NCBI GenBank assembly: GCA_038127595.1
Contig: JAYPIC010000053.1
Location: 1 to 11,475 of the forward strand
Origin: a bacterium
Lineage (GTDB): Bacteria > Fidelibacterota > Marinisomatia > Marinisomatales > UBA1611
Direction of reading: 5' to 3'
Length of the DNA stretch: 11,475 nt
Shown: piece by piece, positions 139-11,047 of the stretch
Layout: every line of letters begins with the position of its first letter
Numbering within the stretch: position 1 is the first letter of the stretch
Made by a program: the position numbers and the translations under genes
The notes under the pieces: generated by a model
What the model was told of the DNA's origin: nothing
Seen by the model: only the letters and a program-made list of their open reading frames with translations
Database searches by the model: none

Positions 139-1458
139 TTAATTTTTAAACTCTTGAAGATATTCAATGTATCTTTTTTTATCAATTATCTCCTTATTCC
201 ACGTATCTCTAAGTATGAATTCTATTTTTTTATCAATTGTATTTTGTATGTTTTCCCTATATCGTCTATATGCATAATAATCAGTCATGGAGATCTCATT
301 GATCTTATTTTGAAAATACATTATAGGATTTAAATTGAATGTACTTCTTACATAATCATTTTTTAATTCGTTTTCTTTTTCAATTTTTACAGCAGCTTTT
401 TTATTTAAAATATTTACCAGACCTGAAATACTTCTATTAACGATACCTTTATCAACTATGGTGTCTTGCGCGTAAATAGAATTTTTTAAACTAGGGAAAG
501 ACTTTAATAGTTCTTTTTGCAACGTATCGGTCGACATATCAAAAATTTCATATCTTTGATCTCTAGCTACATCAAGATAGTCAACCATATAATTTGTAGA
601 AAATTTTATTGATGCTATTTGGTGAAATAAACCAGGCATAATAATTGATAAGACTGCCCATATCGAAATCATTTTTATTGCCTGGTCGACACTACCTTTA
701 CCCCAATAATTAATTAAATAAAAAACAGAAGTCCATAAAAAAACGTATAAAAGGATTAAAGCTAACAGCTTAAAAAAACTCGTCAATTCATTTGTGAGCG
801 CACCTGATAAAATCGCATATGGTATCAGTAAGAAACATATTAGTAAGAACACAAACAAGAAATAATATGAAAACCTGATCGTCAGCCAAGCCTTTTTGGA
901 AATATTATTTAAATAAATTAGCTTATCAAAACCATTATCTTTTTCTAGCCCACCTATGTTAAATAATAAAATGATAAGTAAAATAGGTGTCAAAAATAAT
1001 AAGACAAAACTAAAATCCAGGGTTCCCAAAGCCAATCGTTCAGGATTTGCAATTTCCTCAGCAAGATCATTATCAAATATAGTGCTCCAATTAGTGGCCT
1101 TTTTATAATAGCCATATTGCTCTGCCTGTCCTGTACTAAAAACAATCATTGGCGATGGATTTTTTAGAACATAAGATGGTGTATTCCATATCGCCCAATA
1201 AGGAATAGTGGGATCTCTTCGAGGTTTTTCAATTAAGCCTTGCTCAAGTTCATCATACTGAACTAACATTTCATTCTCAAAGTCTAAATTTTTACTTTTA
1301 ATACTTTTTATTTCTACGTTGTGTTTTTTAAAAACAGCATAGCTTGTTTGACAACCATAAAAAATTGAAAAAGCATACAATAATATTGAAATAATTTTAT
1401 ATGGAGCATTGACCAAGTGAAAATATTCAAATTTTAAAATATTTAAATATTTATTCAT
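139..1458 (-). CDS. ABC transporter permease, DUF3526/ABC-2-like family (second subunit)
   Basis: 439 aa with an N-terminal TM, a large extracytoplasmic loop, NPERLALGTLDFSFVLLFLTPILLI followed by EKDNG, further TMs and a C-terminal soluble domain. Its start overlaps the upstream permease stop (ATGA, 1455-1458). It lies downstream of an ABC ATPase. Confidence 0.85.
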   Translation of the reverse strand: MNKYLNILKFEYFHLVNAPYKIISILLYAFSIFYGCQTSYAVFKKHNVEIKSIKSKNLDFENEMLVQYDELEQGLIEKPRRDPTIPYWAIWNTPSYVLKNPSPMIVFSTGQAEQYGYYKKATNWSTIFDNDLAEEIANPERLALGTLDFSFVLLFLTPILLIILLFNIGGLEKDNGFDKLIYLNNISKKAWLTIRFSYYFLFVFLLICFLLIPYAILSGALTNELTSFFKLLALILLYVFLWTSVFYLINYWGKGSVDQAIKMISIWAVLSIIMPGLFHQIASIKFSTNYMVDYLDVARDQRYEIFDMSTDTLQKELLKSFPSLKNSIYAQDTIVDKGIVNRSISGLVNILNKKAAVKIEKENELKNDYVRSTFNLNPIMYFQNKINEISMTDYYAYRRYRENIQNTIDKKIEFILRDTWNKEIIDKKRYIEYLQEFKN

Positions 1459-2858
1459 ACCAAGATATCTCTTTTAATTTTATATCTAATTAAATATCCA
1501 GCCAAGATTCCCCATGCAATTAACGCAAGGATATCAGTAAGATAATTTCCAATTTGATTTTTAATCAGCATAGTCTGATAGTCAAAATTTTTTACAGATC
1601 TAAAGAACGTATTATCGACAGTCCACCTCCACTCACCAGTTTTTGAGCCACCATGTGCATGTTTATCATTCAACGTTTTAATAAGATATCTTCTGTAATA
1701 CTCAGCTTTTTTTAAAAAGTCTAAATGATGGATCATATCACTTCCACAAAATCCCATACTAAGATTTTGTAGGGATGAAAAAGGATTTAATAGTCCAGAT
1801 AATTGGTATAGCTTTTTTTGTTTTTGATAAATTAAATAATTATTTCCAAAATGTTTATCCCATACCTGATTACCATACTCTTCATCAGCCTGCATAACAA
1901 TTCCATCAAAATTAATAGGTAGTTGACTAAGGCTATCTACTTTATACTTAATTAAATATTCTTTTTCTAGTTTAGACCGTCTCTCATCTCTTGGATTATG
2001 ACCGTCGATACCTTTAGAACGATCTTCTTTCATTTGAGCAATGAAATTTTGTCGGCTTGGTAAGGGATGAACCTTTTCAATAGTATTACCCCAAATTTTA
2101 GGTAAGAATATTGTCCAAACTATCCAAGTCGCTAAAAGTAATGATATTGCTGAAGTATTATTTTTAAGCCTGGCAGAGATAAAAGTGGATAAACAAACCA
2201 CAATTAAGTAATACAGACCATATGATATAAAAGTAAGCCCTAATCTTAATGCAGTATCCAAAGCTAAAGGGCCAAGTAATAATTGTAAAAAAACTGAGAG
2301 CATGATAAGCATTAATCCATAAAACCAAATACTAATAGATTTAGATAAAATTAATTTCTCCGGAGAAATCCCTTGCAGAGCTATAAGCTTCATTCTTCCA
2401 GTTTCTTTATCATTAGTTATAGAGCCAAAAGATAAAAAAATAAGAAATAAAGGCACTACATACTGTAGGATTATGGAAGGTTTAAGTTTACCAAATTTTG
2501 AAATTGTCATTGACTGTGATGCTTCTGAATGCACAATCTCATTTTGGACATGACCCTCAAGTTTTAAAACATTACCTGTTATAGAACCAACCCCATCATC
2601 TAAGCTGTTTAAAATACTTATTGGTTTAAAAACATAAACACCATAGTGAGCTGCCCTATGTGGGTTCATTGGCTCCAAATTATCCCACTGCGACCTAATA
2701 TGTTTTTCAGCTGCGGCTTGAGCTTTGCTTTGGTTTTCACTTTGTAAGTTGCTCATCCAGGCTAAAGATATAATACTCAGAATGAATATTAATGAGACAT
2801 AAACAATAGAACGATTACGAAATAATATTTTCCACTCATTAAGAATTATTACAATCAT
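1455..2858 (-). CDS. ABC transporter permease, DUF3526/ABC-2-like family
   Basis: 467 aa with motifs NPHRAAHYGVYVFKP, LEGHVQN, DKETGRMKL, GIDGHNP and LPINFDG, which I recognise from DUF3526 permeases. Multiple TM segments. Confidence 0.88.
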   Translation of the reverse strand: MIVIILNEWKILFRNRSIVYVSLIFILSIISLAWMSNLQSENQSKAQAAAEKHIRSQWDNLEPMNPHRAAHYGVYVFKPISILNSLDDGVGSITGNVLKLEGHVQNEIVHSEASQSMTISKFGKLKPSIILQYVVPLFLIFLSFGSITNDKETGRMKLIALQGISPEKLILSKSISIWFYGLMLIMLSVFLQLLLGPLALDTALRLGLTFISYGLYYLIVVCLSTFISARLKNNTSAISLLLATWIVWTIFLPKIWGNTIEKVHPLPSRQNFIAQMKEDRSKGIDGHNPRDERRSKLEKEYLIKYKVDSLSQLPINFDGIVMQADEEYGNQVWDKHFGNNYLIYQKQKKLYQLSGLLNPFSSLQNLSMGFCGSDMIHHLDFLKKAEYYRRYLIKTLNDKHAHGGSKTGEWRWTVDNTFFRSVKNFDYQTMLIKNQIGNYLTDILALIAWGILAGYLIRYKIKRDILV

Positions 2859-2867
2859 TGATATAAA

Positions 2868-3569
2868 TTAGCCTCTCATATAATCAATATATATATTCTC
2901 AAGCTCATTTGTTGTGACTTTGGATGTGTCCATTTGATCAATTAAACTTCCATTTTTGAGTATTCCTATTCTGTCACAAGTTTCGCGCACTCTAAAGATA
3001 TCATGAGATGCCATCAATACAGCAGTGCCTTTTTCAGCGAGGGACTTTAAAGTGGTAGAGAGTTCTGTGCTTGCTAGTGGATCTAATCCGCTAGCAGGTT
3101 CATCTAAAAGTAAAACCTTAGCTTTTTTTGCAAATGCAATAGCAATACCAACTTTTTGCCTCATCCCTTTTGAATAAGATCCTACCTTTTTATAAATGGC
3201 ATCTGAATCTAGTCCACAATCATTTAATATTTTGGATAAGGCTTCATCATCATAGTCATCCCCTGCTATTTTACAAAAATAATTTAAATTTTCAAGTCCA
3301 GTTAAATAAGGGTATAAGTTTACATTTTCAGATATATACCCTATTTTTTTTCGAGCATTATCAGCATGTTTAGTAACATTTATACCATCTATAAACGCCT
3401 CTCCATTATCTGGCTCTAAAAAGCCAAGTAAGATATTTATCGTTGTAGATTTCCCTGCTCCATTTGACCCTAGGAGGCCATAAATTTCACCCTCAGTTAT
3501 TTCAATTGATAAATTTTTTACAGCTACAAAACCACCAAAACTTTTCGTTATATTTTTCAAACTAATCAT
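2868..3569 (-). CDS. ABC transporter ATP-binding protein
   Basis: Walker A GSNGAGKST, signature YSKGMRQ, Walker B LLLDEP and H-loop SHD. GGAG SD at 3581-3584. Confidence 0.97.
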   Translation of the reverse strand: MISLKNITKSFGGFVAVKNLSIEITEGEIYGLLGSNGAGKSTTINILLGFLEPDNGEAFIDGINVTKHADNARKKIGYISENVNLYPYLTGLENLNYFCKIAGDDYDDEALSKILNDCGLDSDAIYKKVGSYSKGMRQKVGIAIAFAKKAKVLLLDEPASGLDPLASTELSTTLKSLAEKGTAVLMASHDIFRVRETCDRIGILKNGSLIDQMDTSKVTTNELENIYIDYMRG

Positions 3570-3584
3570 TATTTAATTATCTCC

Positions 3585-5795
3585 CTAAAAATTAACTTTA
3601 TACCTTAAGTTTATGCCTCTACCTGGCTCAGGCATGATCATTTTTATTTTTGATAAATGATTATAATAAGTCTCATCTAAGATATTTGTAACCTGAAAAA
3701 TTATTTGATGGATATTTTCATTTTTACTAAAAGTATATGAGCAGTTATAGTTCAGTAGTTTGTAACCATCAGTAGGATATTCAAATTCCCCAAGTTTATT
3801 TTGATCAGATACGAAAATACCCTCTATTGTGTTATTTAGAAAAGAAACCCTCTTTTCTAACTGAATTCTGAGTAGATCAGGCGGAATGTATGCTAGTGGC
3901 TCGTCATCTTCTAAATTAAGCCCTCTGCAAATTGATGCATTCGCTAATAAATTAAAATATTTTAGATTTAATTTAGTACTTGGTTCAAATCCTTGGATCA
4001 AGGTTTCTTTCCCATAGAGTTTGTATTTATAAAGCCACCCAGCAGATCCGCTACCCCATTCGATCCAGGTTGCCCCCGGTATATAACCATCTCCCTCTTT
4101 TTGGAGTATATGAAAATTAGTACTATAATTAATGTAACTAGTGAGTTTTAGTTCATGACCCTTGCCGAAGAAGGAAGTCGTATTTTCAAAGCCTATTGTA
4201 TTTTCCTGTTCAAGGTTTGGTTCACCGATTTCATAAGAATAGGTGCCTAGATGGGGGCCATCAGAAAATAGGTCTTCGATTCTTGGAGCACGGCTTGTAA
4301 AAAGGAGATGATTGTATATGGAAATATTATCCCAATTTTTTTGAGCAGAAGCTCCCAATGAGGCTAGTAAATAATCTCGTTTTCTTACATCATCTGCATC
4401 AATATTTGAGAAGAAGGTATCATCAGCACTAGGGTTTATTGAACGATACTCTACTCTTCCAGAAAATTGATACTTTTTATTTGTAAGGTTTTTAGTATGT
4501 ACTCCGAACAAGGAGAATTTCATTTCATTCGTGTTGGGAGTCCATATAAAACCTTTGGTGAAATAATTTCTATTTTGAAAATTTGCTCCAATTTTAAGAT
4601 TTTTTCCTGTAAGCATTGCATTGAAATAAATAATGTCTTGACGCAGGTCTACAGATGCATAGTTTGAGCCTTTTACAAATTCTTTATGGCCGTATTTAAC
4701 ATATCCTTGTTCCAGGTCTAGGATATTAAATGAAAGGTGATTTATATCGCTATGATATTTTAGTTTCTGTGTATGGTTCTTTAGAGCAAGATCAACGCCA
4801 TTAATATGTCCTTCAGGACTTCCTGGGATTCCATAATTCATTGAAAAATCTTTTAATTCAATGGTGATCAGATCTTTTTCTCCAAATTTAGTCAAACCAA
4901 GTGTCAGGTCATTTTTTTCTAATGCAGTATTTTTCAAAGTGCCAATTGGTGAAGACTGATCATGTGCTGATCTGTTGTTTAGGGATAATGAAAATTGATA
5001 GTCATTTAAAGGAATGTTGACTTCAGAACCAATCAAATTCGACTGATTAGAGCTTTCATGGCCAAATAATAGTTTGTAATTAGTTGATGATAATTTTTTT
5101 GGGTTTTTAAAAGGCGTTATAATGTTAATTATCCCCGCAATAGTATTTGAACCGTATGCGAGAGTTTCTGGGCCTCTCATAATTTCGACACCGTCTGCTG
5201 CAGAAATTTCCATACTCACAGCGTGGTCGGCAGTTGTATTAGACATATCGCCGAGTTCAAAACCATCACTAGTAATTAAGAATCTATCGCCTGAGTAACC
5301 TCTTAATATAGGTCTCTGTGTTGCTTGGCCTGAAGATCTAATTGCTATACCTGATTCGCCAGATAATGTTGTCGCGAGATCACTAATTATATTTTTTTCT
5401 AATTTATTACCGACCATTGTTATTGAGGATGGTGCTTTACTTTGATTGCTTTCTTTGTGTGAATGAACCGTTATAGCGTTCATTTTAATTGCTTTCGGGT
5501 TTAGAAATACTTTTATGGTTTGATCATTATTGCTTTGATTAATTACTATGCTAGTATCTTTAAAGCCTATCATTGTAAAAATAAGTTTATTTTCAATTGG
5601 GGCTTTTAACTCAAGGCTGAATCTTCCTTCATTGTCAGAAGATGTACCGTTATCATCATTTTCAATAATTATATTTACACCAGCAATAGGTTCTTGATTT
5701 GTTTTATCAAGGATGATTCCTTTTACACTAAATACGTCATTTGAGTATAGACTTGAAGAAAATAAAAGAATGATGAATGAATATATGCAGCGCAC
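3585..5795 (-). CDS. TonB-dependent receptor, ZnuD-like, with N-terminal carboxypeptidase-regulatory-like domain
   Basis: 736 aa, GTG start, signal peptide. N-terminal domain VKGIILDKTNQEPIAGVNI...GTSSDNEGRF. Plug RPILRGYSGDR...DMSNTTADHAV and EIMRGPETLAYGSNTIAGIIN. Barrel motifs LFSDGPHLGTYSYEIG and NILDETYYNHLS, C-terminal Phe. The DHAV, GPH and NHLS motifs resemble ZnuD-type zinc receptors; the substrate is inferred. Confidence 0.92.
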   Translation of the reverse strand: MRCIYSFIILLFSSSLYSNDVFSVKGIILDKTNQEPIAGVNIIIENDDNGTSSDNEGRFSLELKAPIENKLIFTMIGFKDTSIVINQSNNDQTIKVFLNPKAIKMNAITVHSHKESNQSKAPSSITMVGNKLEKNIISDLATTLSGESGIAIRSSGQATQRPILRGYSGDRFLITSDGFELGDMSNTTADHAVSMEISAADGVEIMRGPETLAYGSNTIAGIINIITPFKNPKKLSSTNYKLLFGHESSNQSNLIGSEVNIPLNDYQFSLSLNNRSAHDQSSPIGTLKNTALEKNDLTLGLTKFGEKDLITIELKDFSMNYGIPGSPEGHINGVDLALKNHTQKLKYHSDINHLSFNILDLEQGYVKYGHKEFVKGSNYASVDLRQDIIYFNAMLTGKNLKIGANFQNRNYFTKGFIWTPNTNEMKFSLFGVHTKNLTNKKYQFSGRVEYRSINPSADDTFFSNIDADDVRKRDYLLASLGASAQKNWDNISIYNHLLFTSRAPRIEDLFSDGPHLGTYSYEIGEPNLEQENTIGFENTTSFFGKGHELKLTSYINYSTNFHILQKEGDGYIPGATWIEWGSGSAGWLYKYKLYGKETLIQGFEPSTKLNLKYFNLLANASICRGLNLEDDEPLAYIPPDLLRIQLEKRVSFLNNTIEGIFVSDQNKLGEFEYPTDGYKLLNYNCSYTFSKNENIHQIIFQVTNILDETYYNHLSKIKMIMPEPGRGINLRYKVNF

Positions 5796-5816
5796 AGCTA
5801 TGACAGTTGTTTATTG

Positions 5817-5858
5817 AAACCAGAAGCTGTCTAAATATTTTTAAACAGCTTCCAGTTC
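5817..5858 (-). other. Intercistronic RNA hairpin between the lipoprotein and TBDR genes (stabiliser or partial terminator)
   Basis: Core GAAGCTGT (5823-5830) / ACAGCTTC (5845-5852). It extends to about 19 bp with a 4-nt loop, and all imperfect pairs are G-U on the minus strand. Confidence 0.7.
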
Positions 5859-5870
5859 GATTTGTTTTAG

Positions 5871-6392
5871 TTAATTAACAGTTACAACAACATCATTCGT
5901 AGATGTATAGTCTGCATGACCATCATGCATTAATTGAAGAGTAAAGGATGTACTACCTGAATTTACTCCAATGATGTGTAAAGCAGCTCCATGCTCTTCA
6001 TCATGGTCATGATCGTGGTCATCACCTTCTTCCTCATGTTCCACTTCAACGATAGCAATGCTAGCATTAGCACCAGACACTTCTAATTCACCTTCTTCAT
6101 GTTCTTCACCTTCTTCTTCCTCATGCTCGATTTCCTCACCTTCATGATTTAAAAAATGAACTGCGAGCTCTAAAGTGTCTCCGACATTTAATGATACAGA
6201 ACCAGTAACAGAACCTTCAAATTCTCTATAAATTTCAGTTCCATTGCTTTCTAAAATGAATCCATCGGCATCTGTGTGTTCACGGTCATGATTATCGTGG
6301 TCGTCATCCTCACAACCTGTTGTGAACAATAGTACGAAAGAAAGTAAAAATATAGCATGCGCTTTAACGGCGCGTAAAAAAGATAATTGCAT
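5871..6392 (-). CDS. Acidic His-rich lipoprotein, putative metal-binding partner of the TBDR
   Basis: 173 aa. Signal peptide ending in a lipobox-like FTTG-C27. 16 His, including tracts DDDHDNHDREH, HEEEEGEEHEE and HEEEGDDHDHDHDEEH. SD AGGAG at 6401-6405. Confidence 0.85.
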   Translation of the reverse strand: MQLSFLRAVKAHAIFLLSFVLLFTTGCEDDDHDNHDREHTDADGFILESNGTEIYREFEGSVTGSVSLNVGDTLELAVHFLNHEGEEIEHEEEEGEEHEEGELEVSGANASIAIVEVEHEEEGDDHDHDHDEEHGAALHIIGVNSGSTSFTLQLMHDGHADYTSTNDVVVTVN

Positions 6393-6400
6393 TTTATATG

Positions 6401-6473
6401 CTCCTATAAAAATAGATTAACTGCTAATCACAACCGTTGTAATTAGCTAAAATAAAAGTTGATTTATAGGTAG
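6401..6473 (-). promoter_or_regulatory. SD-sequestering mRNA structure linking the leader ORF 3' end to the lipoprotein RBS
   Basis: On the minus strand, CCUAUAAA (6470-6463, end of the Tyr-Leu-stop codons) pairs with UUUAUAGG (6410-6403, overlapping the AGGAG SD). This encloses an inner hairpin GCUAAUUACAACGGUUGUGAUUAGC (6447-6423). Confidence 0.7.
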
Positions 6474-6811
6474 GTAGGTGGGGCCCTTGAACTATTAGAA
6501 TGGTGGCCAACACTTTTAATAAATGAGCTAGCATCATTCTTGAAAGTTAAAACTGAGTTATTATGAATAGAATTAATATGAACATTTATGAAAAACTTAT
6601 GCTTCCCTGAATTATTAATACAATCTTCGCACTCGTTGTGCATTGAATGGTGTTCAGCAGTATCACAACCTTGATTACAGATACCGTATCCCTCTTCAAA
6701 ATGGTGGGCATGTTCATCTAGATTTAAGCCAGTAAAAACTAATAAGAAAGATAATAAGTACTGGTTAAATACTTTGATGTAGCTCATTATGTTACTTTTA
6801 TTTCTGTTCAT
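6464..6811 (-). CDS. His/Cys-rich leader peptide with C-terminal RAPP arrest motif (DUF2946/CruR/CutF-like)
   Basis: 115 aa (alternative start Met9 at 6787). Hydrophobic YLLSFLLVFTGL, then HAHH, CNQGC, HHSMH and CEDC; ends SRAPPTYL. It is the first ORF of the TBDR operon. Confidence 0.8.
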   Translation of the reverse strand: MNRNKSNIMSYIKVFNQYLLSFLLVFTGLNLDEHAHHFEEGYGICNQGCDTAEHHSMHNECEDCINNSGKHKFFINVHINSIHNNSVLTFKNDASSFIKSVGHHSNSSRAPPTYL

Positions 6812-6922
6812 AATTAGGTTGAAAGCTAAGCAATTTCTATTTAAAAAATAAAAAAACTATCTCATTGGAAATTACTTTAATTGTTTATAAAAAATTTAAT
6901 AACCTTTATAACTCCACATTGA

Positions 6923-6953
6923 TTGTGGCTTTTAGAGTTTTGAATTATATTCG
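6923..6953 (+). promoter_or_regulatory. Candidate promoter for the DASS gene
   Basis: TTGTGG (6923-6928), 17 bp, TATATT (6946-6951). TATATTCG is also one mismatch from the Bacteroidota TAnnTTTG element. The AT-rich background makes this weak. Confidence 0.3.
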
Positions 6954-6956
6954 CAT

Positions 6957-8360
6957 GTGAGCGAAAAAAATATAAGAAAATTTTATCCTTTACTTTTTAT
7001 ATCATTATTATGGTTCCTTAGTCCGCCAGAAGGACTAAGTGTTCAAGGATATAGGATATTCATAGTTTTCTTATCAGTCATTTTTTCTCTTTTATTGCAA
7101 CAGATCTCGATGGCATTAAGTGTACTTGGTGGTCTAATTTTCTCTACAGTATCTGGGTTGATTCCGATTAAGGTTGCTTTAAAAGGGTATGGAGATTCAA
7201 CTACTTGGCTAGTAGTTAATGCCTTTTTAATAGCAGGCGTAATTATTCAAACAGGCTTAGGTAAAAGGATATCTCTTCTATGCATATTTTATCTAGGTAA
7301 AACAATGAGTGGCCTTGGATATGCTTTATGCTGCGCAGAACTTATTTTAGGGCCAGTAGTGCCTTCAAATACTGCCAGAGGTGGTGGTATATTAGCTCCA
7401 ATTGTTGATTCTATATCTAGAGCATTGGGTTCTACACCTTTAGACAAACCTGAAAAAGCAGGAGCATACTTGCATTTAATAGGTGCGCATGCTAATCTAA
7501 TAACTGCTGCAATGTTTTTAACCGGTATGGCGGCAAACCCTATTGTTTCAAAGGCAGCTTATGATATTTTTGAAATTGAGTATAATTGGCTGGACTGGGC
7601 ACTTGGAGCTATGGTTCCAGGATTAGTGGGATTAGCTCTTTTGCCATTATTCATGATGTATTTAGCTCCTCCTAAAATATCTTCAATAGAACCAGTAAGA
7701 GAAAAAATAAAGCAAGATCTAAAAAAAATAGGGCCATGGACTTTTCATGAGAAAAGCACTGCTGCAGTAATGGTTATGATGGTCCTATTATGGTTAACCA
7801 AAAACTTGCATGGAATAGGAACGACCACTGTCACATTCTTGGGAATTATTTTTATCTTATTTTCAGGCGCCGCATCTTGGGAAAGTATGATAAAAAATCA
7901 TAAGGCCTGGGATGCTTTGATTTGGCTTGGAGGACTTTTGACCCTTGCTACTAGTCTAAAAGATTTAGGATTTATATTGTGGTTTACAAGTTTCCTTCAA
8001 AACATGCTAACAGATTTTACGCCGTTGGTGATTTTTACTTTGGTTGTAATAATCTATTTCTACTCAATGTATTTATTTTCAATGTTAACGGCACACATTG
8101 TTGCCCTAGCAAGTGCGATGATGCTTCTAGCCTCTGAAATAAATTTAGCTCCACTGGTGATCATTTCTTGCATCGCGTATTTTTCAAATTTAAGCGGATG
8201 CTTGACTAACTATTCCACAGGGCCAATAATCATTTATTTTGGCAATGGATATTTGTCAACGTTAAAATGGTTTAAAATTGGTTTTCTAGTTTCCTTATAT
8301 CACATAACTATTTGGCTAGGAATTGGATCGGTATGGTGGAGGATATTAGGTTGGTGGTAG
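6957..8360 (+). CDS. DASS family anion/dicarboxylate transporter (CitT / 2-oxoglutarate-malate translocator-like)
   Basis: 467 aa, GTG start, highly hydrophobic. Motifs TGLGKRI, PSNTARGGGI, AMFLTGMAANP, AWDALIW, FSMLTAH, LTNYSTGP and a WW..LGW C-terminus. Confidence 0.93.
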   Translation: MSEKNIRKFYPLLFISLLWFLSPPEGLSVQGYRIFIVFLSVIFSLLLQQISMALSVLGGLIFSTVSGLIPIKVALKGYGDSTTWLVVNAFLIAGVIIQTGLGKRISLLCIFYLGKTMSGLGYALCCAELILGPVVPSNTARGGGILAPIVDSISRALGSTPLDKPEKAGAYLHLIGAHANLITAAMFLTGMAANPIVSKAAYDIFEIEYNWLDWALGAMVPGLVGLALLPLFMMYLAPPKISSIEPVREKIKQDLKKIGPWTFHEKSTAAVMVMMVLLWLTKNLHGIGTTTVTFLGIIFILFSGAASWESMIKNHKAWDALIWLGGLLTLATSLKDLGFILWFTSFLQNMLTDFTPLVIFTLVVIIYFYSMYLFSMLTAHIVALASAMMLLASEINLAPLVIISCIAYFSNLSGCLTNYSTGPIIIYFGNGYLSTLKWFKIGFLVSLYHITIWLGIGSVWWRILGWW

Positions 8361-9363: not shown

Positions 9364-10677
9364 ATTATAAAAGCTTCTTTTCAAAAAATTTTTAACAGTT
9401 ATAGAGAGTTACCAAGTAACGTTCATCTTTTATTTTTACTTGAGTTTAGTTTAAGTCTGATTCATGTTGCCTTCATTTTAATATTAAATATTTATCTTCG
9501 AAAAAAAGGGTTTTCAGATCCTGAAATTGCGTCATTTAATTCACTAAGGTTTGTAGGCGCATTAGCTTTTGCTTTACCTCTCGGAATTTTCATTAGAGGA
9601 AAAAAATTAAAACCATTTTTTGTTCTTTCTTCTTTAGCAGTTCCTTTAACTAGTATTATGATAATCGAATCAATTAAGCACTCAATCATTCCATTAATTC
9701 AATTAGCATTTCTTTTATGGGGAATTGGAATGATGATTATGAGAGTATGTTCATTACCATTTATCATTAGAAATACGACAAGTCAAAATAGTACCGAATC
9801 GCTATCCTTAAGTGCCTCTACATGGAGTTTAGCAACGATTTTTTCTGGTCTAATAATATCTGGTTTAGATTGGATCGCAAATATTGAGATTTTTGAAAGA
9901 AGTTTTTCCTTTGACGAATATAGCATTTTGTGGATTATTACCGTCATTGGTTTAGTCTCATTTTCATTTGCAATCAAGATAAATGAAAACGACGATGAGC
10001 TAAGTCAAAAGCAAAGTGGCATATTTTCATTGCGTCAAAATTATGATTGGAACTTAATATTTAGAGCTATCTCTCCATTGATTCTTATTTCAATTGGAGC
10101 GGGACTAACGATCCCTTTTGTAAATCTATTTTTTAATTCAATATTTAATTTGAGCTCTAGCGATTTTAGTTTGCTTGGAAGTTTTACAGCACTATTGGTT
10201 TTTATTTTTTCACTTCTAGTTCCAACGCTTAGAAAAAAATATGGATACTGGGCTACAATTGTGCTTAATCAAAGTCTAGCAATAGTCTTTTTAATAATAA
10301 TGGCGACAACGGAATTGTATGCAGCATCTAGTTATGCAATTATCATTGCTATTAGCGCGTATGTACTCAGGCAACCTCTAATGCATATGGCACATCCTGC
10401 TTCCAATGAATTGATGATGAATTATGTTGGTAAAAAAAACCAGGAACTAATTAGTGCATTAAGTTCTAGTTTATGGAGTGCATCCTGGTTTATTAGCGCA
10501 AAAATATTTGAATGGCTAAGAATATTAGAATTTCAATATTTTGAAATATTCCTAATTACAGCTGCTCTTTACATCATGGGAGTTGTTTTATTTGGATTTC
10601 TGATTGGCCAGTATGAAAAAAATAGTAGAAAAAGTAATCAGATATTGCCAATAGCTGACGAGTTATCTATTGATTGA
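9364..10677 (+). CDS. MFS transporter (start extended about 98 codons upstream of the ORF-track call; exact start uncertain)
   Basis: The frame is open from 9352 (after TAA 9349-9351) and encodes YRELPSNVHLLFLLEF...ILNIYLRKKGFSDPEIASFNSLRFVGALAFALPLG, a typical MFS TM1-TM2. The second half has LISIGAGLTIPFVNLFF and LRKKYG. About 437 aa fits a 12-TM MFS protein. Confidence 0.8.
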   Translation: MIKASFQKIFNSYRELPSNVHLLFLLEFSLSLIHVAFILILNIYLRKKGFSDPEIASFNSLRFVGALAFALPLGIFIRGKKLKPFFVLSSLAVPLTSIMIIESIKHSIIPLIQLAFLLWGIGMMIMRVCSLPFIIRNTTSQNSTESLSLSASTWSLATIFSGLIISGLDWIANIEIFERSFSFDEYSILWIITVIGLVSFSFAIKINENDDELSQKQSGIFSLRQNYDWNLIFRAISPLILISIGAGLTIPFVNLFFNSIFNLSSSDFSLLGSFTALLVFIFSLLVPTLRKKYGYWATIVLNQSLAIVFLIIMATTELYAASSYAIIIAISAYVLRQPLMHMAHPASNELMMNYVGKKNQELISALSSSLWSASWFISAKIFEWLRILEFQYFEIFLITAALYIMGVVLFGFLIGQYEKNSRKSNQILPIADELSID

Positions 10678-10738
10678 AAAATACATTAGTAATGTTATGC
10701 AGGAAATACATATATTTGTTCAACTAATGGAGTATTTT

Positions 10739-11047
10739 ATGAAAAAATTATTTATAGCTTCTTTCCTATTCTCTTTTTTGTTGGCCGAGGATAGCAAAAT
10801 TAATCTTAAAATCGATGGCATGCAGTGTGCGTATAGCTGTGCAGGTAAAGTTTCTCAGGTAGTTCAGAGTATCAAAGGCGTAGAGGAATGTGAAGTTGAC
10901 TTTGCTACTGGTACGGCAGTCGTTAAGTATGATGAGAAAAAAGTGAATTCCGATAACATAATAAAGCTAATAAACAAAAAGACATATTATAAAGCTGCGG
11001 TTGATAAAAAAGAATGTGCTAGTAAAGAAAAAAGTACTTCTATTTAA
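10739..11047 (+). CDS. Exported heavy-metal-associated (HMA) domain protein, MerP/CopZ-like
   Basis: GGAG SD at 10729-10732 precedes ATG 10739. Signal peptide MKKLFIASFLFSFLLA, then LKIDGMQCAYSCAGKV...GVEECEVDFATGTAVVKYD. 102 aa. Confidence 0.88.
   Translation: MKKLFIASFLFSFLLAEDSKINLKIDGMQCAYSCAGKVSQVVQSIKGVEECEVDFATGTAVVKYDEKKVNSDNIIKLINKKTYYKAAVDKKECASKEKSTSI

Follow-up and report, generated by a model that had tools for sequence, protein, structure and literature searches.

The locus analysed here raises the question of what a short open reading frame (ORF), rich in cysteine and histidine, does at the start of an operon for metal uptake and, if it is a leader on which ribosomes stall, which signal it reads and how the stall is passed on to the genes behind it. 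The window, by which we mean the whole stretch of 11,475 nucleotides that was analysed, comes from a bacterium of the class Marinisomatia. The original prediction had placed the ORF ahead of a lipoprotein, a zinc-type receptor and a DUF3526 ABC module, and domain and family searches agree with this operon content, which is as follows:

5871 to 6392, minus strand: His/Glu-rich lipoprotein of 173 aa, the first gene predicted to be regulated; no match in Pfam, NCBIfam or the PDB
3585 to 5795, minus strand: ZnuD-like TonB-dependent receptor of 736 aa; best PDB match ZnuD (E 3.5e-23)
2868 to 3569, minus strand: ABC transporter ATPase, from a domain match
1455 to 2858, minus strand: ABC-2 permease with DUF3526, from a domain match
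139 to 1458, minus strand: second ABC-2/DUF3526-like permease, from weak Pfam matches (E about 0.02)

By its sequence, the receptor is ZnuD-like and not ZnuD: its best NCBIfam match is ZnuD (NF038289), at 125 bits against a cut-off of 950. Residues D190, H191 and H515 are invariant in 12 orthologues, and D190/H191 and H515 align with the high-affinity site of ZnuD (plug Asp-His, barrel His; the site contains H100 and H499), the equivalent of ZnuD E340 lying beyond the aligned stretches. The closest named relative is a Marinimicrobia protein that is 85% identical. Two further elements of the window may be mentioned here. A 13-bp inverted repeat without a U tract (5823-5852, minus strand) is located in the gap between the lipoprotein and receptor genes and might serve in the stability or processing of the RNA, and a protein with a heavy-metal-associated (HMA) domain is encoded about 4 kb from the operon (10670-11047, plus strand).

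The ORF itself, hereafter the leader, contains the following elements:

6464 to 6811, minus strand: leader ORF of 115 aa, with two Cys pairs
6719 to 6760, minus strand: hydrophobic N-terminal segment (residues 18-31), from hydropathy
6620 to 6712, minus strand: predicted metal site (residues 34-64: H34, H36, C45xxxC49, H54, H55, C61xxC64), from conservation
6488 to 6619, minus strand: spacer of 44 residues, which in the family is fixed in length and variable in sequence
6476 to 6487, minus strand: RAPP, the predicted arrest motif, which by analogy with CruR would place Pro111 in the P site and Pro112 in the A site

When recomputed, the hydrophobic segment, the His and Cys counts, the spacer of 44 residues, the position of RAPP and its distance from the stop all came out as described before. 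The leader has 11 histidines (34, 36, 37, 54, 55, 58, 71, 78, 83, 103 and 104) and four cysteines (45, 49, 61 and 64); 44 residues lie between C64 and R109, and RAPP (residues 109-112, nucleotides 6487-6476) is followed by three sense codons, encoding TYL, and the stop. Neither possible start is preceded by a clear Shine-Dalgarno (SD) sequence, and the alternative one, M9 (nucleotide 6787), would give a product of 107 aa. For residues 18-31 the best 11-residue Kyte-Doolittle mean is 2.45 and the best 19-residue mean only 1.31, so that the segment resembles a signal peptide and does not amount to a full membrane helix; it probably is a Sec signal or a signal anchor, with no evident cleavage site. 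The AlphaFold model (mean pLDDT 65, pTM 0.32) has a confident helix at residues 10-29 and is otherwise of low confidence and mostly unstructured, as would be expected of a peptide that folds only around metal. RNA-library contigs overlap parts of the leader, and one of 448 nt joins the leader, the intergenic region and the lipoprotein gene; as the libraries may contain DNA and contigs do not demonstrate a transcript, we do not count them as evidence of expression. Among the 3377 six-frame ORFs of at least 60 aa in its own genome, the leader alone has R[AGSPD]PP or RAGP within 15 residues of the stop, which indicates that the C-terminal motif is not due to chance.

A leader that matters to its operon should be found at related loci. 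We gathered receptor orthologues irrespective of the presence of a leader (the best 80 of 111), and 63 loci remained after removal of 17 having less than 1.1 kb of upstream sequence. Conservation of the CxxC, of RAPP and of their spacing upstream of homologous genes, the check that had been proposed together with the original prediction, was borne out: a same-strand upstream ORF ending in [RK]xPP is present in 58 of the 63 loci, against none on the opposite strand and 2 of 400 random windows of the window's own genome, and the spacer is 42-45 residues long, most members carrying RPPP. Of the five leaderless loci, two are cut off within a long gene where the contig ends; the leader's place is taken by a Fur-family gene in one, and the other two have an operator instead. 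Poribacteria-related genomes have a leader of the same design ahead of the receptor in 24 of 30 loci, and one Flavobacteriaceae genome has one with a spacer of 44 residues. Four Poribacteria-related receptor loci (L241, L247, L251 and L253) have neither a leader nor a Zur-type box; two of them have the same flanking genes as loci with a leader, which suggests leader loss.

A profile built from 26 leaders gave matches in 89 of 401 genomes when run against the host phylum, and 134 matching representatives when run against 1.84 billion proteins. Of these representatives, 109 are shorter than 200 aa and have the C-terminal motif; the others are for the most part calls that look truncated or chimeric, or matches due to chance. 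The C-termini of the 109 proteins read RPPP (77), RAPP (21), RSPP (6), KSPP (3) or RGPP (2), and in the 93 proteins having both motifs the CxxC-to-Arg spacer is 42 residues in 65, 43 in 16, 44 in 11 and 45 in one. Close homologues (n = 66) carry RAPP in 61 cases and RGPP in one, the other four having no motif near the C-terminus. Across 101 loci, every one of the six Arg and four Pro codons is used in the motif, meaning that selection acts on the protein. In a 102-row alignment, whose rows were pre-selected for a C-terminal PP, Arg is conserved in 98 rows and PP in all 102, the consensus being S-R-x-P-P. The residues of the predicted metal site are found in 61 (H34), 48 (H36), 80 (C45), 79 (C49), 84 (H54), 68 (H55), 94 (C61) and 89 (C64) of the rows, and 74 have a His at position 30, immediately after the hydrophobic segment, where the window's leader has Asn. 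Hence, of the richer His/Cys ligand set that had been claimed for this leader, the two Cys pairs stand, being widely kept (some members lack one of them), but only four of the 11 histidines are conserved and seven are not. The leaders, when aligned, have no conserved stretch of 7-10 columns.

Pfam and NCBIfam scans of the 26 leaders gave only scattered weak matches, in at most two members each. One of these, in a single member (L004:736-1077), is to the NCBIfam LIC10965 family (E 0.045), which might be a related leader family. DUF2946 (PF11162), against which a profile search had been proposed, gave no match with the leader at E 0.1 or with the 26 members at E 1, nor any in the leader's own genome at E 10 or in the 401 phylum genomes at E 0.01, and we therefore rejected membership of that family by HMM. 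In the ESM Atlas, the nearest Pfam-labelled cluster is DUF2946 (score 0.95, 161/256 features, family on 36% of members) and the ten best named matches all agree on it, which we take as a lead only; the clusters nearest the leader are mostly from Fidelibacterota where a phylum is recorded. Judged by sequence, the leaders thus constitute a conserved CruR/CutF-like family, outside the DUF2946 HMM and without existing annotation. In one locus, L022, two leader copies are present in the same operon, one before the lipoprotein gene (75-392) and another after it, ahead of the receptor gene (about 1044-1404, plus strand); the second copy has a degenerate CxxC.

Do these features call for regulation? 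A small secreted metal-binding protein without a regulatory role, in which the Pro-rich tail is structural, might be encoded just as well ahead of uptake genes. Its tail would, however, have to account for a spacer that is fixed in length while free in sequence, for a leader that comes first ahead of nine different kinds of gene, and for a motif, RAPP, that is avoided in proteomes according to PMC12992588; the mostly unstructured, low-confidence AlphaFold model does not favour such a protein either, and we consider this the least probable of the explanations weighed here. We are confident, in turn, that the leader is a regulatory arrest leader of some kind. That arrest would occur at RAPP is suggested by the CruR toeprint and by natural variants that match arrest-permissive substitutions: the leader has the arrest-permissive core R[AGSPD]PP near its C-terminus, in the form RAPP, and mutagenesis of ApdA/ApdP as reported in PMC12992588 places G, P and S among the substitutions that keep full or partial arrest. 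The same work describes the Arg as irreplaceable, a rule to which the K found in 3 of the 109 leader proteins runs counter, and the motif alone is reported not to be sufficient for arrest.

What such a leader monitors need not be a metal. RAPP peptides were first described as monitors of Sec/YidC, paired cysteines could form disulfides in the periplasm, as has been proposed for CutF, and many of the downstream genes encode envelope proteins; the leader could thus report on export or disulfide formation, in a SecM-like or redox manner. Such a function would leave the conserved His residues beside the cysteines and the metal-uptake targets unaccounted for, and sec or dsb genes are never the first downstream gene in the 101 loci. 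We find it very unlikely.

The original prediction did not say how a stall would be turned into expression of the next gene. Folding of the region 6520-6375 suggests an answer, in which three elements take part:

6463 to 6470, minus strand: anti-SD arm, in the final codons and stop of the leader; one side of a predicted 8-bp helix
6423 to 6447, minus strand: inner 11-bp hairpin, conserved in place and not in sequence, without a U tract
6401 to 6410, minus strand: 3' arm of the outer helix (6410-6403) from the fold, overlapping the lipoprotein SD (6405-6401)

In this fold (z -2.0), nucleotides 6470-6463 pair with 6410-6403 around the inner hairpin. If the first base of the Pro codon predicted to be in the P site is taken as the origin, the anti-SD arm occupies +12 to +19, and a ribosome stalled at that codon would, given the length of the ribosome footprint, cover or unwind it. 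The intergenic region between leader and lipoprotein gene is 71 nt long, close to the family median of 74, and no intrinsic terminator was found in 5700-7100. The SD is paired with the leader 3' end (probability >0.5) in 41 of 74 non-redundant loci and in 15-26 after shuffling of that end, although C-rich Pro codons pair with GG-rich SDs by composition, the shuffled control still reaching about 21 of 74. When a stalled ribosome is imposed as a constraint, modelled SD accessibility in the 74 loci rises from 0.26 to 0.44 (up in 54, down in 5); for the window itself it goes from 0.16 to 0.38 only. Duplexes between cognate arm and SD average -7.4 kcal/mol, compared with -6.0 +/- 0.2 kcal/mol for permuted pairs (p 0.005 in the 26-locus comparison), and for the inner region 54 of 73 non-redundant loci have a more stable fold than their shuffles (z below -1.5); it should be noted that these helix statistics are inflated by kinship, the loci coming from related genomes. 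RNAalifold found no consensus structure in the 26-row alignment, and support for the helix consequently comes from single-sequence folds and from the named helix, in which 79% of the cells of that alignment are paired (2 of 500 shuffles were equally high). Two-sided changes occur in 6 of its 9 pairs, including an A-U for U-A swap in the window, at counts that are marginal (25 and 44 of 500 shuffles were as high). The helix is absent in about a third of the loci. Based on this modelling, we predict that the last codons of the leader base-pair with the SD of the gene behind it and that a stalled ribosome would open this SD. The anti-SD helix is thus predicted to supply the output of the switch, an element that the original prediction lacked.

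The helix could also be incidental. In CruR the output is transcriptional, and a ribosome stalled on the leader might likewise act by blocking Rho, a factor that is present here. The last 90 nt of the leader contain more C than G (18:7 and 14:6 in 60-nt windows), a modest excess, and the inner hairpin could serve as a pause site for the polymerase. On the other hand, the intergenic regions are short when compared with the 162 nt in cruR, only 30 of 101 loci have at least twice as much C as G in the 75 nt that precede the Arg codon, and the strength of the cognate arm/SD duplexes relative to permuted ones would be left without a role. An output mainly through Rho is, in our view, distinctly unlikely, it being understood that translational and Rho outputs could coexist.

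The identity of the metal has to be read from the genes that the leaders precede. We recovered 106 distinct leader loci, 101 with downstream sequence and about 27 selected through the receptor. With labels given by BLAST against the reference proteins of this analysis, four classes being without an informative Pfam label, the first downstream gene encodes a lipoprotein in 58 loci, an outer-membrane protein in 19, an ABC-2 ATPase in 8 and MerC in 2; a ZnuD-like receptor follows directly or after one gene in 6, and other receptors, of unknown substrate, in 8. Behind the 19 outer-membrane-protein genes come ZnuA-family and then ABC-3 genes wherever the sequence reaches that far, and a DUF3526 permease gene is next in all 7 of the 8 ABC-2 ATPase loci that have enough sequence. 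The one ZnuA-family binding protein that was compared has His at the third ligand site, as in ZnuA; its best NCBIfam match is AztC and its best PDB match MntA, a manganese protein. All ZnuD and AztC scores fall below the curated cut-offs. Taken together, the gene context indicates that the metal is probably zinc.

Several of these loci have further peculiarities. The outer-membrane proteins encoded between leader and ZnuA-family gene in the 19 loci (e.g. L093:846-1928, L100:839-1882 and L103:2542-3741) are signal-peptide proteins of 340-400 aa without a Pfam or NCBIfam match, and are possibly zinc porins. Leader paralogues stand directly before ABC-2/DUF3526 genes in L068, L071 and L075, where the intergenic region keeps the inner hairpin and an apparent relic of a lipoprotein start. 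In L003 (6502-7426, minus strand) and L004 (4328-5252, minus strand), a MerC gene convergent with the receptor gene has a second leader paralogue in front of it. Finally, a long protein, perhaps a secreted metal scavenger, is encoded between the leader position and the receptor in L099 (782-2749), L121, L127, L193 and L195; it has a T9SS sorting domain in L099 and His/Asp-rich repeats in L193.

If zinc is the signal, the presence of the leader might be related to that of the zinc repressor Zur. The window's own genome (96% complete) encodes Fur-like and PerR-like regulators only. No Zur match passing E 1e-12 was found in the 43 genomes of its family, and only one of the 401 phylum genomes has a clear Zur-like match (96 bits); 104 weaker matches in the phylum (49-71 bits) could be Fur or divergent Zur. 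Using a Zur-type box defined as the 16-nt palindrome read from zur loci, we found that two leaderless receptor operons are preceded by a box with 13 of 16 matching positions, in genomes that both encode Zur-like proteins; these two loci are from related genomes and may reflect a single event. Boxes of this quality occur in 3 of 1000 random windows; among the leaders, they stand at 2 of 95 from Marinisomatota and at none of 18 from Poribacteria-related genomes. Upstream of the leaders, no Zur box was found at 11 of 12 matches (0/96), a de novo search of 97 upstream regions gave no operator-like motif, and Zur- and Fur-type patterns occur at or below the shuffle level; one exploratory pattern lies slightly above it (19 of 96 regions versus 9-15). 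In L192, a short Fur-family gene (2300-2725, plus strand) occupies the leader's place, preceded by an imperfect palindrome, with a divergent MerC gene. A strict exclusion of leader and Zur at the level of the genome is ruled out, as both are present in 14 of 24 leader-bearing Poribacteria-related genomes and in one Marinisomatota genome, and the exchange of leader and Zur thus holds per locus and not per genome.

This coexistence may indicate a leader that responds to another metal. The same stall-and-helix switch might respond to Ni, Co, Mn, Cu or several metals: CruR, with a CxxC, a spacer of 45 residues and RAPP, senses copper (PMC9426467), His-only CutF-like clusters have been linked to Ni/Co genes (PMC9973294), and the binding protein matches MntA best in the PDB. 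Against this, the receptor retains the ZnuD site residues, two leaderless orthologues have Zur-type boxes, and no recognised Cu efflux, oxidase or chaperone family appears as the first downstream gene in the 101 loci, with the proviso that for four of the classes Pfam gives no informative label. We regard a metal other than zinc as fairly unlikely.

The complete switch that we propose would then operate as follows. When metal, probably zinc, is scarce, a ribosome would stall at the RAPP of its own leader and hold the SD-hiding helix open, which would free the lipoprotein ribosome-binding site and allow translation of the zinc-type uptake operon. When metal is present, it would be bound by the Cys/His cluster, which precedes the stall by 47-77 residues and would by then have reached the tunnel exit or passed it, probably while the peptide is being exported; folding driven by the metal would pull on the nascent chain and release the stall, after which the ribosome would finish the three remaining codons and depart, and the helix would close. 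The distances to the predicted P-site Pro, 47 residues for C64 and 77 for H34, mean that the cluster would extend over both tunnel exit and translocon. Release by metal is suggested by what is established for CruR, and the polarity, on at metal scarcity, by the same analogy, because opening of the SD would turn importers on. We put this model forward tentatively, as a whole whose chances seem close to balanced.

The opposite polarity is that of CutF, in which metal causes the stall, at an EF-P-sensitive PPP, and turns the operon on; the genes behind the leader would then deal with an excess of metal. The RPPP of most members contains the PPP that CutF needs, and a CxxxC together with an SD-hiding stem-loop are CutF features. 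The targets, however, are importers, and importers of this kind are repressed by zinc through Zur in Caulobacter (PMC4176598); moreover, the RAPP type found in the window arrests in vitro even with EF-P in the case of CruR (PMC12992588). We consider the CutF polarity highly improbable here, and retain the model in which the stall occurs at low metal.

These results may be taken one step further. Across much of Marinisomatota, a family of nascent-chain zinc sensors might have replaced Zur, in the form of a transposable cassette of leader plus helix placed before receptor, ZnuA/B, ABC-2/DUF3526 and MerC operons; it would constitute a translational zinc regulon that reads envelope and not cytoplasmic zinc, and would be evolutionarily interchangeable with a Zur box. 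We hold this wider view to be possible but doubtful. Metal-sensing arrest leaders have so far been demonstrated for copper only (CruR, CutF), and a zinc-linked family that combines the polarity of CruR with output through an anti-SD helix would broaden the principle from copper to a second metal. It would also explain how zinc uptake could be controlled in marine bacteria without a recognisable Zur, and would provide a marker for the prediction of zinc regulons in uncultured phyla.

How does the leader compare with known systems? Like CruR (Bp2923) of Bordetella pertussis, it heads a TonB-receptor operon, has an N-terminal export signal (probable in our case) and a CxxC that is separated from RAPP by 44 residues, versus 45, and in both RAPP ends three residues before the stop; uptake genes lie downstream in both, and hence the same polarity is expected. 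According to PMC9426467, copper control by CruR depends on the CxxC and on how far it lies from RAPP, was impaired when five residues were added to the spacer, and does not require the signal peptide; arrest was shown by toeprint (PMC12992588). Unlike CruR, our leader has an additional CxxxC and a His cluster, its intergenic region is less than half as long, and it has a predicted anti-SD helix where CruR has demonstrated Rho-dependent termination. Its targets are zinc-type and not copper, the first downstream genes of the 101 loci being zinc-type or unlabelled uptake genes.

With CutF of Rhodobacter capsulatus the leader shares a length below 150 aa, a Cys/His site with CxxxC, a PP in the last 15 residues, a short intergenic region and a stem-loop, predicted here, that hides the SD of the next gene; the PPP is found in most members of the leader's family. 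The rules used to collect CutF-like proteins in PMC9973294 are matched by its 115 aa, its PP at 111-112 and a same-strand gene 71 nt away (limit 1000); as regards the signal peptide, a hydrophobic helix is present, without an evident cleavage site. CutF differs in that its stall is triggered by Cu and switches on an oxidase for detoxification, whereas importers are found here, and CutF requires export (PMC9973294; bioRxiv 10.1101/2025.02.05.636593), which CruR does not (PMC9426467).

That this leader type may be undescribed, as the original prediction had it, holds in part. PMC9973294 catalogues 5334 CutF-like proteins, some proposed to be non-copper leaders, with Ni/Co suggested for His-only clusters; the words zinc, Znu, Zur and Marini- are absent from its main text. 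The catalogue of RAPP/RGPP uORFs by Fujiwara et al. 2025 (PMC12992588) places RAPP uORFs before TonB receptors across Gram-negative phyla, and its source data hold at least nine RAPP leader rows before 'zinc-regulated' receptors that the text does not discuss, its main text making no mention of zinc, Zur, Shine-Dalgarno or stem-loop. A zinc-sensing arrest leader was, on the other side, in no paper among the matches listed for the open-access literature, and the present family was not among the matches listed by motif searches of the PMC12992588 source-data rows. Since that screen covered RAPP and RGPP only, the RPPP majority of the family lies outside it, and screens restricted in this way miss that majority.

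The operon itself resembles znuK/znuGHI of Caulobacter crescentus (PMC4176598), with its TonB receptor, ABC-2 ATPase and two ABC-2 permeases; among 14 control genomes DUF3526 is found in Caulobacter alone, where the identity of the match with znuH/I is our reading. Control in Caulobacter is by a DNA-binding repressor, Zur, which represses znuK and znuGHI when zinc is present, unlike the leader, upstream of which none was found at 11 of 12 matches (0 of 96). The receptor keeps the site residues of ZnuD from Neisseria (PMC4557270). The leader is most likely CruR-like in its input and CutF-like in its output, and placed on zinc-type uptake operons.
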